DNA from: Candidatus Moraniibacteriota bacterium
Lineage (GTDB): Bacteria > Patescibacteriota > Minisyncoccia > Moranbacterales > UBA1568
Assembly (NCBI GenBank): GCA_013336285.1
Contig: JAAXTX010000004.1
Location: forward strand, 624-64,623
Reading direction: 5' to 3'
DNA length: 64,000 nt
Within the stretch, counting starts at the first letter, position 1. Each line of letters starts with the position of its first letter. Both the position numbers and the translations under genes were made by a program. The notes under the pieces were generated by a model. It had not been told where the DNA came from. It saw only the letters and a program-made list of their open reading frames with translations, and searched no databases. Below are positions 8,764 to 47,824 of the stretch, in pieces.

Positions 8764-8835
8764 TGCCCCGACTAGGAATCGGACCTAGATCTCATCCTTA
8801 GGACGGATTCGCTCTATCCATTGAGCTATCGAGGC
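8764..8835 (-). tRNA. tRNA-Arg (anticodon CCT), no encoded CCA
   Basis: GCCTCGATAGCTCAATGGATAGAGC 5' half, anticodon loop GUCCUAA, T-arm AGGTCCGATTCCT. The acceptor stem has one G-U pair. Confidence 0.7.
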
Positions 8836-8953
8836 AGTCCGCCGTCAACGGTTGAATATTTTCGTACCGTATTTCTTTAACCCAAACCATCGGGTCGTTG
8901 TCATTATTCCCTGAATTCCCTGACCTTCTTCCGATATTACATTGATGTAACGG

Positions 8954-44604: not shown

Positions 44605-46035
44605 ATGAAAAACACGAAAATCGTGGCGACCATCGGCCCCTCTTCCGAATCCAAGGAGAAACTTCGTGCGCTTGCCGTGGCGGGAATGGATGTCGTCCGG
44701 CTCAACTTCTCGCACAATGAGCATGCCTGGCACCGCGACGTGATCAACCGTGTCCGCGAGGTGTCGGAAGAGCTCGGTCAGCCGATCGGGATACTTGCCG
44801 ATATGCAAGGACCCCGCATCCGTATCGGGAACGACACCGAGATTTCCATAACGCAAGGCGAGACGGTCCGCGTGAGCGACATATCCCGAAAGGAGACGCT
44901 CACAGTGTCGGAGATGCAGACGATCTTCCTCGATATAGCGGGAATCTCCGATCCGCTCGAAGCCGGACATCAGATACTGATCGAGGACGGTACGAAACGG
45001 CTTTCCGTCACCGGTCGCGAGGAAGGCGCCGCGATCGCGAAGGTCGAAACCGCCGGTGTCATCAAGCCGCGAAAAGGCGTGAATCTTCCGGATTCCGTTC
45101 TGGATCTCCCGATCCTTTCCGATAAGGATAGGAAGGACCTCGCCTTCGTCCTCAAGGAAGGAGTCGATTTCGTGGGGCTTTCCTTCGTGGGTTCCGCGGC
45201 GGATATCGAAAGCGCACGGGAAGCGATGCGGGCCGAACTTCCTGAAGGCGCAAGATTGCCGGATATCATCTCGAAGATCGAGCGAAAGGAGGCTATCAGG
45301 AATCTCGATGAGATAATCAGGGTGACGGACGCGGTCATGGTCGCCCGCGGGGATCTCGGTATCGAAATGCCGGAATCCGAAGTCACGCTACTGCAGAAGG
45401 ATATCATCCGAAGAAGCCTGTTGGGACTTCGTCCGGTCATCGTAGCTACCCAGATGATGAAGACGATGACCGATACCCCGGTACCGACCAGGGCGGAAGT
45501 GAGCGACGTGACGAACGCGGTCGTGGACCACGCCGACGCCGTGATGCTTTCCGAGGAGTCCGCTATGGGTAAGTTTCCGGTGGAAACCGTCTCGATGATG
45601 CAGGAAATCATGTCAAAAACGGAGGAGTCGCCTTTCGACGACGTATACGATGCGCTCGACCTCTATGTCCATTCCGAGTACGCCGCGCTCATACGGAGCG
45701 TGTACGAGCTTGCCAAGAGCTTCAAGACCAAGGCTATCCTGTTGCTCTCGATGAGCGGCTATACCGCGAGACTCGCCTCCCATTTCCGGCCTGCCACGGG
45801 CATATTTACCGCAACGAACGATCGAAGGACGTACAACCAGCTCGCTTTGGTCTGGGGGGTCAGACCGTATCTTTTCGAGGGGGACAAGAATCTTGATTCC
45901 TATATCGACAAGATGGTGGATCAGGCGAAGGAGAGCGGCGAACTTCTCACCGGGGACCAGACGGTCGTCTTTCTCGGCCGCGTTCCCGGGGAGCGCGATA
46001 TGATGCGTCTTGTCGGAATCCGGGAAATACGGTAG
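44605..46035 (+). CDS. pyk: Pyruvate kinase
   Basis: MKNTKIVATIGPSSESKEKLRALAVAGMDVVRLNFSHNEHAWH. Start at the internal ATG 44605; the upstream 52 codons of the track ORF have no PK homology. Confidence 0.85.
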   Translation: MKNTKIVATIGPSSESKEKLRALAVAGMDVVRLNFSHNEHAWHRDVINRVREVSEELGQPIGILADMQGPRIRIGNDTEISITQGETVRVSDISRKETLTVSEMQTIFLDIAGISDPLEAGHQILIEDGTKRLSVTGREEGAAIAKVETAGVIKPRKGVNLPDSVLDLPILSDKDRKDLAFVLKEGVDFVGLSFVGSAADIESAREAMRAELPEGARLPDIISKIERKEAIRNLDEIIRVTDAVMVARGDLGIEMPESEVTLLQKDIIRRSLLGLRPVIVATQMMKTMTDTPVPTRAEVSDVTNAVVDHADAVMLSEESAMGKFPVETVSMMQEIMSKTEESPFDDVYDALDLYVHSEYAALIRSVYELAKSFKTKAILLLSMSGYTARLASHFRPATGIFTATNDRRTYNQLALVWGVRPYLFEGDKNLDSYIDKMVDQAKESGELLTGDQTVVFLGRVPGERDMMRLVGIREIR

Positions 46036-46186
46036 GCTTTATTCCTGGGGAGCGTGAAGCTTCGCAGAGCTTCAAAAAGCTGCGAAAGTTCCTTTTAGCT
46101 TCTAGAACAGGAGAAGGGAAGGCTTTGAAATTGGAAATGCCCCCGTTTCCTGTTTATTGTTCATTGTTCGCTGATATCTGATATTT

Positions 46187-46300
46187 GGAGAGGTGGCCGA
46201 GTGGTTGAAGGCGCGCGCTTGGAAAGCGCGTTAGGGGCAACTCTACGCAGGTTCGCCCGGGCATTCGCCGGGCGCCCCGCGTATGCGGGGCGAATCCTCC
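46187..46300 (+). pseudogene. Partial duplicate of tRNA-Ser (5' 69 nt identical) with a 36-nt GC-rich double-hairpin insertion in the T-loop and no 3' acceptor strand
   Basis: 46187-46255 is identical to 46342-46410. CCCGGGCATTCGCCGGGCGCCCCGCGTATGCGGGGC is inserted between GGTTCG and AATCC. The downstream sequence does not complete the cloverleaf. Confidence 0.5.
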
Positions 46301-46341
46301 GATATGTTTTCAAAATAGAAGATGATATAGTTGGCAATTAC

Positions 46342-46426
46342 GGAGAGGTGGCCGAGTGGTTGAAGGCGCGCGCTTGGAAAGCGCGTTAGGGGCAACTCTA
46401 CGCAGGTTCGAATCCTGTCCTCTCCG
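46342..46426 (+). tRNA. tRNA-Ser (anticodon GGA), type II, no encoded CCA
   Basis: GGAGAGG acceptor pairs perfectly with CCTCTCC. Anticodon loop UUGGAAA. Long variable arm. T-arm GCAGGTTCGAATCCTGT. Confidence 0.8.
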
Positions 46427-46466
46427 CAGCTCGCTTGTTTTATCGAGTAACCCGAACGCTTTTATA

Positions 46467-47141
46467 ATGCTCAAAATCAAACCACGTCTTAGTGGTTTGA
46501 TTTTTGTGACTATTATGACTAATCCCCAAGACTGGAGAATTGAAGATCATTTTACAGGGATAGAAATTTCTCAGATATTGCCTATTTCTGAGAGATTTAA
46601 TTCAATGCTCGCGAGAGTGAAGAATCGAGAATCACTTGTTTCGAGTATGGAGAATATTTTTGGCATTGTATTTATGGCTCGAGAACTTGAGTGCCATTTT
46701 GAAATTTTTCAACGTCTTCATTCTTCAATTACTCCTTGTAGCTTTAGTCCAATAAGGTCTTCAGAAGAACAAAAAACTATTGAAAAAATGAGGTTTGAAG
46801 CTTTTGCTTACATAAACACTTTAGGGAGATTATATTACTGGATTTCTAAAAGGGGATTGAGCAATGCGCCAAAGATTATTGAAATAGTAGAAGCGTTTAG
46901 GCACAAATACACGGCTCATAGAAGTTCTGATAAGACCAAAAACGAGACAGATTATGAAAAGGAAGTCCATCACTATGTGATTCTTGGAAACCTTTTTAGG
47001 GATAATCAACTAGTGCTACAGATTCAGAAAACACAGGGCAGTATAGTGGAATTTAACCTTACTAAAGACCATGATGTTATCATGAATGAGTTTATAGAGG
47101 TATTTTCAAAATTTTTAGAAGATTTGAAAAGCCCGACCTGA
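46467..47141 (+). CDS. Low-GC hypothetical protein with an Rx5H (HEPN-like) motif; candidate acquired defence or Abi-type gene
   Basis: GC visibly lower than flanks and immediately 3' of tRNA-Ser. The RHKYTAH segment fits the HEPN Rx4-6H pattern. Confidence 0.4.
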   Translation: MLKIKPRLSGLIFVTIMTNPQDWRIEDHFTGIEISQILPISERFNSMLARVKNRESLVSSMENIFGIVFMARELECHFEIFQRLHSSITPCSFSPIRSSEEQKTIEKMRFEAFAYINTLGRLYYWISKRGLSNAPKIIEIVEAFRHKYTAHRSSDKTKNETDYEKEVHHYVILGNLFRDNQLVLQIQKTQGSIVEFNLTKDHDVIMNEFIEVFSKFLEDLKSPT

Positions 47142-47260
47142 ACACTCTAATTTACTATATTCTAAGTATCCTCAAAGAACCCCTCAACATCCCCACACTT
47201 CAAGATTCCAGACCGAGATAGCTCGCAGCGGAAAACGAAAGAGTCCCTGAGGGGATTTTT

Positions 47261-47692
47261 TTGTTCATATTCAAACCGATGTATACTAGAATACATAATC
47301 CGCGGCAAAATCCTATGCAAAACGATGCCAAGAAAATATTCCTGAATACGGTCGGTTGGGGATTCGTGCTCTGGCTCGTCGGCTATGTGCTGGGTATCGT
47401 TTTCTTCGCCCTTGTACCGAAAGACCAGATCGGATACTTCGTTATGCCGCTCGGTGTGGCGTTTACTTTATGGGTGCTGTGGAAGAAGATAGAGCGGGAG
47501 GAACTCATGTGCTATTTCGGACTGGGCATTATCTGGACTGTCATGGCGATCGTTTTGGACTATCTTTTCAATGTGAAATTGTTTCACCTGACCGATTACT
47601 ACAAGCAGGATGTGTATCTGTACTACGTCCTAACCTTTATCTTGCCAGTTGCCTTCGGGTGGTATAGGTTCAAGGTGAAGAAAGGGAAGTAG
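47261..47692 (+). CDS. Small integral membrane protein (four TM helices)
   Basis: 143-aa ORF with hydrophobic helices. No family recognised. Confidence 0.45.
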   Translation: MFIFKPMYTRIHNPRQNPMQNDAKKIFLNTVGWGFVLWLVGYVLGIVFFALVPKDQIGYFVMPLGVAFTLWVLWKKIEREELMCYFGLGIIWTVMAIVLDYLFNVKLFHLTDYYKQDVYLYYVLTFILPVAFGWYRFKVKKGK

Positions 47693-47824
47693 GGGAGATT
47701 ATATGGTACTCGTCATTGGTCATCCCGGGCTAGACCCGGGATCCAGAGCATAGATTCCGGCTCAAAGTCTGGAATGACAGGAAAAAAGAATTTCAACAGG
47801 TTTAAACCATTCATTTGTACGAAT

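Follow-up and report, generated by a model that had tools for sequence, protein, structure and literature searches.

A double-hairpin tRNA-Ser fragment in a Moranbacteria genome, probably the relic of a small tRNA-resident GIY-YIG cassette

The truncated tRNA-Ser gene and its states among relatives

Downstream of the pyruvate kinase gene (pyk) of a Candidatus Moranbacteria genome, which belongs to the Candidate Phyla Radiation (CPR), an intact tRNA-Ser(GGA) gene is preceded by a truncated copy of itself and followed by a gene of low guanine-plus-cytosine (GC) content. We analyzed this locus within 64,000 nucleotides (nt) of contig JAAXTX010000004.1 (hereafter, the window; features are listed in Table 1). 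As the initial annotation of this stretch had recognized, the truncated copy is an exact direct repeat of the first 69 nt of the intact gene (46187-46255 versus 46342-46410, 100% identical according to a repeat finder), and its T-loop is interrupted by 36 nt, CCCGGGCATTCGCCGGGCGCCCCGCGTATGCGGGGC, that form two GC hairpins. The insert occurs once in the window, with no copy expected by chance. Both pairings were confirmed: in hairpin 1 (46255-46273), positions 46255-46260 pair with 46268-46273 around the loop GCATTCG, and in hairpin 2 (46274-46291), positions 46274-46280 pair with 46285-46291 around the loop GTAT. The 3' acceptor strand is missing, again as annotated, but the tRNA copy resumes on the far side of the hairpins for seven bases that had been overlooked, GAATCCT, before it diverges. 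ARAGORN and Rfam called the second copy only, the first reaching 25.5 bits at a loose threshold (the Rfam gathering score for tRNA is 29 bits), and neither a second hairpin module nor further partial tRNA duplicates were found in the window.

For comparison, we used 80 loci from GTDB species genomes that were retrieved through the upstream pyk gene, nearly all of them from Candidatus Moranbacteria or other Patescibacteria and with protein identities of at most 84%; tRNA-Ser comes after pyk in most of these loci. The nearest relatives, whose pyk genes are about 75-77% identical to that of the window at the nucleotide level, present three states: a plain, single tRNA-Ser(GGA) and nothing else (L002, L006 and L008), a window-type scar made up of fragment, hairpins and a short spacer (L001, L003, L130 and L131), and a full element (L004), in which fragment and hairpins are followed by 283 extra bases and then by the intact tRNA. 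The scar's presence in at least five independent assemblies, these four among them, rules out an assembly artefact, and the intact tRNA-Ser(GGA) of the window has a 100% identical counterpart in L002, L003, L004, L006 and L008. In both L001 and L004, the flank 5' of the fragment aligns with the flank 5' of the lone tRNA in L002 and L008, and in L004 the flank 3' of the intact tRNA aligns with the downstream flank of the same two loci. Because both flanks align with those of empty-site relatives, the extra DNA sits within the ancestral tRNA locus; in the window, it is the fragment that occupies the ancestral tRNA position, its upstream flank aligning with that of the single tRNA in L002, L006 and L008. 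The architecture and its presence/absence polymorphism are thereby observed directly. Comparison among relatives, which the initial annotation had proposed, finds the locus polymorphic rather than conserved everywhere, a property that is common to other kinds of mobile DNA too.

The extra bases of L004 encode an intact protein of 87 amino acids (aa), beginning MYYVYILRS, that matches the Pfam GIY-YIG domain (PF01541, E 3e-17). When the window and L001 were aligned by MAFFT with the corresponding segments of L004, L082 and L118, the 43-nt spacer ahead of the intact tRNA was found to retain the 5' untranslated region with the first bases of the open reading frame (ORF; ATGTTTT) at one end and, at the other, the ~20 nt that adjoin the tRNA, with a single gap of ~245 nt in place of the ORF. 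Because the spacer matches both cassette ends, the ~245 nt that held the nuclease ORF must have been deleted, so that both the internal deletion and the GIY-YIG identity of the lost frame are directly supported. A tblastn search found no GIY-YIG coding potential anywhere in the window, and with its GIY-YIG ORF deleted the window copy is a relic, not a gene-bearing member. We regard 46187-46341 as the decayed remnant of a small tRNA-resident mobile GIY-YIG cassette of Patescibacteria and some other bacteria, and put the probability of this reading at about three in four.

One observation concerns L001 separately. Its intact tRNA-Ser (8804-8891) carries G in place of A at position 14 (CCGGGTGG versus CCGAGTGG), a base that is, as far as known, universally conserved in tRNA and that the truncated copy of the same locus keeps as A; the G could be a sequencing error or mark a damaged gene.

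The intact cassette, its recurrence and its hairpins

In relatives, the cassette runs in the order 5' tRNA fragment, GC double hairpin in a tRNA loop, stub of a few further tRNA bases, nuclease ORF and intact tRNA, spanning roughly 395 bp, and its ORF encodes a stand-alone GIY-YIG nuclease of 83-87 aa with the domain at residues 1-71. A GIY-YIG ORF occupies the homologous position in L004, L082, L043, L110 and L115, and versions with the hairpin in the D-loop occur at the pyk locus itself (L023 and L028). The same plan recurs at another gene, tRNA-Ser(CGA), in the more distant L043 (pyk 57% identical), where a 5' fragment, a 36-nt T-loop double hairpin whose stems carry compensatory changes, the stub GAATCCCAC and an 86-aa GIY-YIG ORF (E 3.5e-18) precede the intact tRNA.

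Recurrence of the architecture was observed directly by two routes. A metagenome scan with the hairpin-1 motif returned 51 matches on 48 stretches, about half of which are tRNA fragments bearing the double hairpin; these include the full order of fragment, hairpins, GIY-YIG ORF (83-87 aa) and tRNA at tRNA-Ser genes with anticodons GGA, CGA and GCT, as well as short ORF-less versions like that of the window at tRNA-Pro(TGG) and at one Ser(CGA) locus. Across genomes and metagenomes, the same hairpin module was found in 19 distinct tRNA-fragment contexts. The second route went through the GIY-YIG protein, to avoid ascertainment through the hairpin: with identities of 60-70%, at least 188 homologues (E<=1e-5) that bear the name 'GIY-YIG nuclease family protein' were recovered from Moranbacteria, Uhrbacteria, other Patescibacteria and Smithella, and each of the protein-retrieved contexts that we examined combines the ORF with an intact tRNA and with a tRNA 5' fragment that is interrupted by hairpin sequence. 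The architecture overall extends to tRNA-Ser (four anticodons), Pro, Asp, Arg and Trp genes in Patescibacteria and Smithella, and the 60-70% identity of the nucleases between these groups points to horizontal movement. A viral origin was rejected, as the hairpin motif had 0 matches in IMG/VR and the nuclease just 5 weak phage matches.

Several loci depart from the basic order. Fragments of the 3' part of a tRNA, with hairpin, occur downstream of an intact gene or in tandem units in L105, L100, L095 and L148. In L136 and L148, the cassette follows directly after the seryl-tRNA synthetase gene at tRNA-Ser(TGA), and a hairpin with an attached 3' tRNA fragment (CGAATCC...CCGCCA) comes after both this tRNA and the next one, tRNA-Ser(GCT). 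A tRNA-Arg cassette in L145 has a tyrosine-recombinase (Phage_integrase) gene (1-352) as its upstream neighbour, which stops ~250 nt short of the GIY-YIG ORF; the tRNA fragment lies in between, and ~20 nt upstream of the tRNA are duplicated as well. The integrase may be a coincidence or part of a composite element. In the distant Moranbacteria L060 (7677-7826) and L066 (7623-7773), tRNA-Ser(GGA) is followed by TTTGAAACTGAG... and then by a 3' tRNA fragment, which in L060 is of the L066-type allele and unlike the intact gene of L060, as though the tRNA gene had been exchanged in its entirety.

The hairpins themselves are under constraint. Across 15 distinct variants, standard pairing holds in 96.4% of cells and 6 of the 13 pairs show compensatory changes on both sides, values reached in 0 of 500 shuffles, and sliding the partners lowers pairing to 37-46%. 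Hairpin 2 lay outside the search pattern, and in hairpin 1 the two free pattern positions pair in nearly all matches. Loops are conserved as GCATTCG and GNAT, G.T (G.U) wobble pairs occur among the variants, and in L004, L082 and L118 the hairpin region is 95-100% identical versus 77-86% for the cassette interior. The double module is a constrained, covarying structure that accompanies the cassette family wherever we found it. It is not an intron, although the initial annotation had viewed the T-loop insert beside tRNA introns: a search of Rfam at E<=10 over 46100-46560 returned a tRNA and a terminator-like match only, which speaks against an intron or ribozyme; a group I or archaeal bulge-helix-bulge intron was rejected on the insert's length of 36 nt, the lack of a 3' exon and the bacterial host; and a split or trans-spliced tRNA was rejected on the bacterial host, the intact copy 86 nt downstream and the absent 3' half. 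Two simple rules for the hairpins were likewise given up. A 2-nt target duplication at TT^CG^AA fits the T-loop and anticodon-loop variants, but not those in the D-loop, and was dropped as a defining feature for that reason; the notion that the hairpins break a T-loop target of the nuclease fails in L145, which has an intact T-arm and carries its hairpins in other loops.

These patterns bear on an alternative in which the hairpins are an independent palindrome, akin to repetitive extragenic palindromic (REP) sequences or miniature inverted-repeat transposable elements (MITEs), that enters hairpin loops of single-stranded DNA and is kept in the fragment because the fragment is a dead copy made by tandem duplication, the link to GIY-YIG being indirect. 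Hairpin 1 with TTCG...CGAA flanks does stand at the center of a multi-copy repeat of ~105 nt (TTCG-CCCCGGCATTCGCGGGG-CGAA between inverted ends ATACCAAAT...ATTTCGGTAT), with at least 5 copies on one 69-kb contig; the hairpins also occur singly or doubly in D, anticodon and T loops, and in 3' fragments and tandem units without GIY-YIG, and their TT[CG]...[CG]AA flanks resemble a 2-nt target duplication at the palindrome TTCGAA, although that duplication is missing from the D-loop variants. However, the module is single-copy in the window, and at all loci examined, including those retrieved through the protein, a GIY-YIG gene directly upstream of a tRNA is accompanied by a hairpin-interrupted 5' fragment, a constant pairing that argues against chance occupation of a neutral site. 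The tRNA copy moreover always ends a few bases past the hairpins, which ties the two features together, and we consider an independent palindrome unlikely.

A further alternative holds that the fragment and its hairpins are a functional RNA, either a processed small RNA or a cis-regulatory leader, that has been under selection since the nuclease was lost. It would account for a 69-nt fragment that is 100% identical to the intact gene and for hairpins conserved at 95-100% beside an ORF that has diverged by 14-22%, for wobble pairs that suit RNA better than DNA, and for the persistence of ORF-less versions at tRNA-Ser and tRNA-Pro in several lineages. Yet gene conversion explains the identity of direct repeats equally well, the fragment is decayed in L043 and unlike the intact tRNA in L115, folding of the whole fragment is not unusually stable (z = -1.68), and the hairpin and fragment region has no Rfam family match, so that a functional RNA seems quite improbable.

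Mosaic structure provides further signs that the GIY-YIG cassette is mobile. L115 combines three different alleles in its fragment (acceptor GGAGAAG, T-stem GGAGG), its post-hairpin stub (CCCAC, a T-stem of the L043 type) and its intact tRNA (GGAAAGG, GAGAG/CTCTC); because the stub matches another tRNA allele, it must travel with the cassette. In L043, the D-arm of the fragment has decayed, and such mosaics are expected from repeated recombination between diverged tRNA alleles. The scar module of the window (46185-46427) is 98.8% identical to that of L001, whereas the flanks cannot be aligned and pyk is 77% identical.

Table 1. Features of the tRNA-Ser locus and of related loci. Positions are those of the window unless a locus is named.
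Feature	Position or locus	Strand	Evidence or context
5' fragment of tRNA-Ser(GGA), nt 1-69, ending at T-loop TTCG	46187..46255	+	exact repeat of 46342-46410
Double GC hairpin, 36 nt, two 18-nt modules, within T-loop	46256..46291	+	unique in window
GAATCCT, rest of T-loop (3' half) and most of 3' T-stem strand	46292..46298	+	read from sequence
43-nt spacer, probable remnant of GIY-YIG cassette	46299..46341	+	MAFFT alignment with intact cassettes
Intact tRNA-Ser(GGA)	46342..46427	+	ARAGORN; Rfam, 60.5 bits
Variable segment, 36% GC, between tRNA and conserved membrane-protein gene	46428..47314		cargo differs in relatives
Perfect 13-bp AT-rich hairpin flanked by A run and T run	46473..46504		within the ORF first annotated at 46467-47141
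Low-GC gene, 208-aa protein of an uncharacterised HEPN-like family	46515..47141	+	ORF, homologue starts
Recombination/transfer tract	46003..47700 (L003 7400-9100)		sliding identity, pairwise alignment
Second-type GIY-YIG gene	L002 8736-9050; L004 8345-8691; L008 8680-9018; L043 3730-4043		
Cassette at tRNA-Asp, hairpin in D-loop	L140		Uhrbacteria
Cassette at tRNA-Ser(TGA), hairpin in anticodon loop	L136, L148		adjoins serS, Smithella-like
Cassette at tRNA-Ser(CGA), hairpin in anticodon loop	L143		
Cassette at tRNA-Arg(TCT), hairpins in D-loop and anticodon loop	L145		Patescibacteria
Cassette at tRNA-Trp, single hairpin	L147		after rpmG (L33)
Hairpin-1-only MITE-like repeat	L085, L086, L089, L090, L093, L096-L098, L101-L104, L106, L108, L109, L111, L113, L114, L117, L119, L124, L127		metagenome contigs

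The low-GC gene and the variable segment

The segment 3' of the tRNA differs in base composition from its surroundings (GC of 50% for the whole window and 57% for pyk) and in content among relatives. Its ORF, at 34.8% GC, was correctly singled out as low-GC in the initial annotation, but the start given there (46467) does not hold: the gene almost certainly begins at the ATG at 46515, judging from the sequence, because homologues begin at the equivalent of MTNPQDW and a terminator-like hairpin lies at 46473-46504. This hairpin resembles a terminator-type small RNA model on the minus strand and is a probable bidirectional terminator closing the tRNA transcript. At the same position, L004, L008 and L043 each have a GIY-YIG gene; L002 has one as well, within 3.5 kb that also encode two dehydrogenases and a TrmB-like regulator; and L001, L006, L082 and L118 have unrelated sequence.

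Relative to L003 and L130, a stretch around the tRNA is 95-100% identical except for one 100-nt block at 84%, but outside it identity to L003 drops to 67-84% in pyk and 65-87% beyond the far end. This jump indicates that a tract of ~1.7 kb, containing the scar, the tRNA, the low-GC gene and the membrane-protein gene, was recently exchanged between lineages that are ~23% diverged. The low-GC gene is a foreign gene, as first annotated on its GC contrast. It is a separate acquisition that came or was exchanged on the ~1.7-kb tract and was not delivered, as had been proposed, through the duplicated tRNA segment: the element sat between the tRNA copies, and the gene lies 3' of the tRNA, unbracketed.

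A HMMER scan recovered 172 representative homologues of the low-GC protein, 45 of them at E<=1e-10; the closest full-length homologue is 54% identical and lies on a low-GC contig without a tRNA. In an alignment of 42 members, H61, R129 and H135 are invariant, and RHKYTAH, read earlier as an Rx4-6H motif, is the window's version of the core motif FRxKxTAHRS (R-x5-H). As to HEPN or Abi families, 7 of the 42 members have sub-threshold matches to HEPN_AbiU2 (PF18734) centred on the motif, with a best E of 0.0025, and residues 141-170 of member P0130 match positions 118-147 of that profile at 16 bits, below the Pfam cut-off of 26.8, and PADLOC and NCBIfam yielded nothing consistent. The window protein itself has no match in Pfam, PADLOC, NCBIfam or PHROGs. 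Its AlphaFold2 model (mean predicted local distance difference test score 93) is mostly helical with a three-stranded sheet, and Foldseek found no match to it in the PDB. The family thus resembles AbiU2-type HEPN proteins in the invariant R-x5-H, the weak profile matches, the small helical protein and the foreign-looking DNA, and differs from them in that all matches fall below cut-off, PADLOC and the PDB give none, the model contains a sheet, and no conserved partner gene, nor any tRNA, was seen among the neighbours of members P0003 and P0004. On this sequence evidence HEPN membership is plausible, and the gene probably encodes a toxin or defence RNase of the HEPN type. The window and L003 (7912-8538) differ in this gene at 10 codons, 8 of them nonsynonymously, and residue 60, adjoining the invariant H61, is Cys in the window and Tyr in at least 90% of the family; the codon differences suggest relaxed or diversifying selection.

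A tRNA fragment beside an intact tRNA gene is the usual signature of an integrated element (PMC9897764), and the initial annotation took the partial tRNA for a remnant attachment-site duplication of an integrative element with a defence or toxin-like cargo. On such a reading, it would be the attL/attR remnant of a classical integrase island that brought in the low-GC gene and has since lost its integrase. The low-GC segment that varies among relatives, as hotspot content does, would suit such an island, as would the Phage_integrase gene next to the cassette-bearing L145. In integrase scars, however, it is the 3' part of the tRNA that is repeated, bracketing kilobases of island DNA with an integrase (PMC9897764, citing Williams 2002), whereas in the window the 5' 69 nt are repeated upstream, with the copies 155 nt apart (395 nt with the cassette intact) and a structured insert in the T-loop. 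No tRNA-derived repeat lies beyond the low-GC gene, either within 45900-47600 or elsewhere in the window. We listed the ORFs across ~42.9-53.9 kb and scanned 10 of them against Pfam, obtaining pyruvate kinase, a membrane protein, Zn_ribbon_2, inositol monophosphatase, a helix-turn-helix plus phosphoenolpyruvate-utilizer protein, or no match (MsrA and MsrB were identified by eye only), and the integrase that the annotation had suggested searching for did not appear: none of the ORFs examined has an integrase or recombinase domain. The DNA between the tRNA copies aligns to the GIY-YIG cassette, not to island DNA, and L004 and L043 show the same architecture without the low-GC gene. The annotated scar of a tRNA-targeting mobile element therefore stands, but as an integrase-type attachment site it is very improbable.

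In some of these loci (Table 1), the intact tRNA is immediately followed by a GIY-YIG gene of a second type (~77 aa, Pfam E 7.8e-13). This gene is preceded by TTCG and a 6-bp hairpin, then by the conserved CTACGGCGTGAC, and the hairpin stem covaries between loci (CTACGC/GCGTAG versus GTTCGC/GCGAAC).

Movement, persistence and known systems

The cassette may spread in the manner of a free-standing homing-endonuclease gene, with the nuclease breaking a tRNA gene and homologous recombination from a cassette-bearing allele copying the cassette in, the tRNA sequence itself providing the homology for repair. Such a recombination model would account for tandem versions as well as for mosaic fragments. 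Closed by the stem of a tRNA arm, the hairpins would be a cis element of the cassette, serving perhaps as a recognition or immunity structure for the nuclease or as a 5' structure of its mRNA. The fragment may have been kept because it carries the sole upstream region that allows transcription of the downstream tRNA: inspection of the 43-nt spacer (46299-46341) revealed no promoter-like sequence, and retention of the ancestral upstream region is probably why the fragment persisted after loss of the ORF. Because the window copy is a relic, its direct effect is probably limited to providing this upstream region for transcription of tRNA-Ser(GGA).

We infer the way in which the cassette moves by analogy with SegB, a phage homing endonuclease discussed below. 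Several points weigh against this account. A sigma-70 scan found no promoter upstream of either tRNA copy. The occupied allele keeps an intact tRNA, so that all subsequences of the naive target are still present and immunity by simple disruption cannot work, and a protein of ~85 aa without a DNA-binding domain has no obvious sequence specificity. The loop that harbors the hairpins varies and the T-arm of L145 is intact, so that a single role as breaker of T-loop recognition fails. In addition, the 69-nt Ser-GGA fragments are 100% identical to the intact gene (in the window, L001, L003, L004, L082 and L118) while the ORF diverges by 14-22%, a pattern that calls for gene conversion acting between the two copies, or for selection, and the cassette might either carry a whole tRNA or regenerate the 5' part only. 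If the nuclease were specific for structure and attacked extruded tRNA-gene DNA at its loops or junctions, the intact target, the missing DNA-binding domain and the varying hairpin position could be reconciled, but this is speculation. It is possible, although we hold it doubtful, that a ~85-aa GIY-YIG nuclease together with a covarying hairpin junction on a tRNA arm represents an undescribed class of mobile element, one that would invade loops guided by structure, compensate the host with a supplied or regenerated tRNA, and move ORF-less modules and single-hairpin MITE-like repeats in trans.

Bacterial genomes commonly encode small GIY-YIG proteins that stand alone (UPF0213/COG2827) and whose function is, to our knowledge, uncharacterised. 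The best matches of the cassette protein among solved structures are stand-alone UPF0213 proteins (PDB 1ZG2, BH0048, and 1YWL, EF2693; E 6e-6), which share its size and single domain and are called only 'hypothetical' in their entries; in the literature searched, we found no link between UPF0213 and tRNA-gene fragments or hairpin modules. The locus ties one clade of these proteins to a fixed tRNA-gene architecture, suggesting the hypothesis that they are selfish, tRNA-resident nucleases, and it offers a candidate substrate in tRNA-gene DNA with its hairpin junction. For annotation, it accounts for 5' tRNA fragments that are not integrase scars and draws attention to a conserved, structured 36-nt module that tRNA finders ignore. 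For CPR bacteria, which cannot be cultured alone, the locus documents that lineages ~23% diverged have recently traded kilobase tracts and cargo linked to tRNA genes.

Residence in or near tRNA genes with polymorphic occupancy of syntenic loci, as we observed for the cassette, is also a feature of free-standing GIY-YIG homing-endonuclease cassettes of the SegB kind. For specific cleavage of the cassette-free allele and transfer by recombination, the signs are indirect and consist of the mosaic alleles, the near-identical modules in diverged flanks and the 60-70% protein identity across phyla. Seg and I-TevI proteins are ~200 aa or more and have a separate DNA-binding domain that provides site specificity; the cassette protein, at 83-87 aa, lacks such a domain, and profiles of phage homing-endonuclease genes match it weakly. 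The closest parallel is SegB of phages T4 and T6, a GIY-YIG homing endonuclease whose free-standing gene lies in a cluster of tRNA genes (PMC2330249; PMC13096335). SegB recognizes a site of 27 bp with the T-arm motif GGTTCRANTCC as its conserved core, cuts inside many tRNA genes leaving 2-nt 3' overhangs, and achieves nearly 100% inheritance of its own region (PMC2330249); it also causes tandem amplification, dependent on recombination, of a unit made up of a full tRNA and segB (PMC13096335).

SegB and the cassette share a GIY-YIG gene among tRNA genes with presence/absence polymorphism between related genomes, and, on the recombination model, spread and tandem amplification by homologous recombination, with repeat units that contain a full tRNA. 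The T-arm motif of SegB is moreover the motif that is interrupted in the window, where the fragment lacks the 3' acceptor region beyond it. The cassette differs in residing on bacterial chromosomes, not in phages (0 viral matches), and in having a fixed, covarying double hairpin and a 5' tRNA fragment, neither of which is met in the available text of the SegB papers; the window copy differs further in having lost its nuclease. In the literature searched, we found no bacterial GIY-YIG cassette described that comes with a partial tRNA duplication or with T-loop hairpins. The family thus appears to be undescribed in the searchable literature, and appears akin to the free-standing GIY-YIG elements that reside at tRNA genes.

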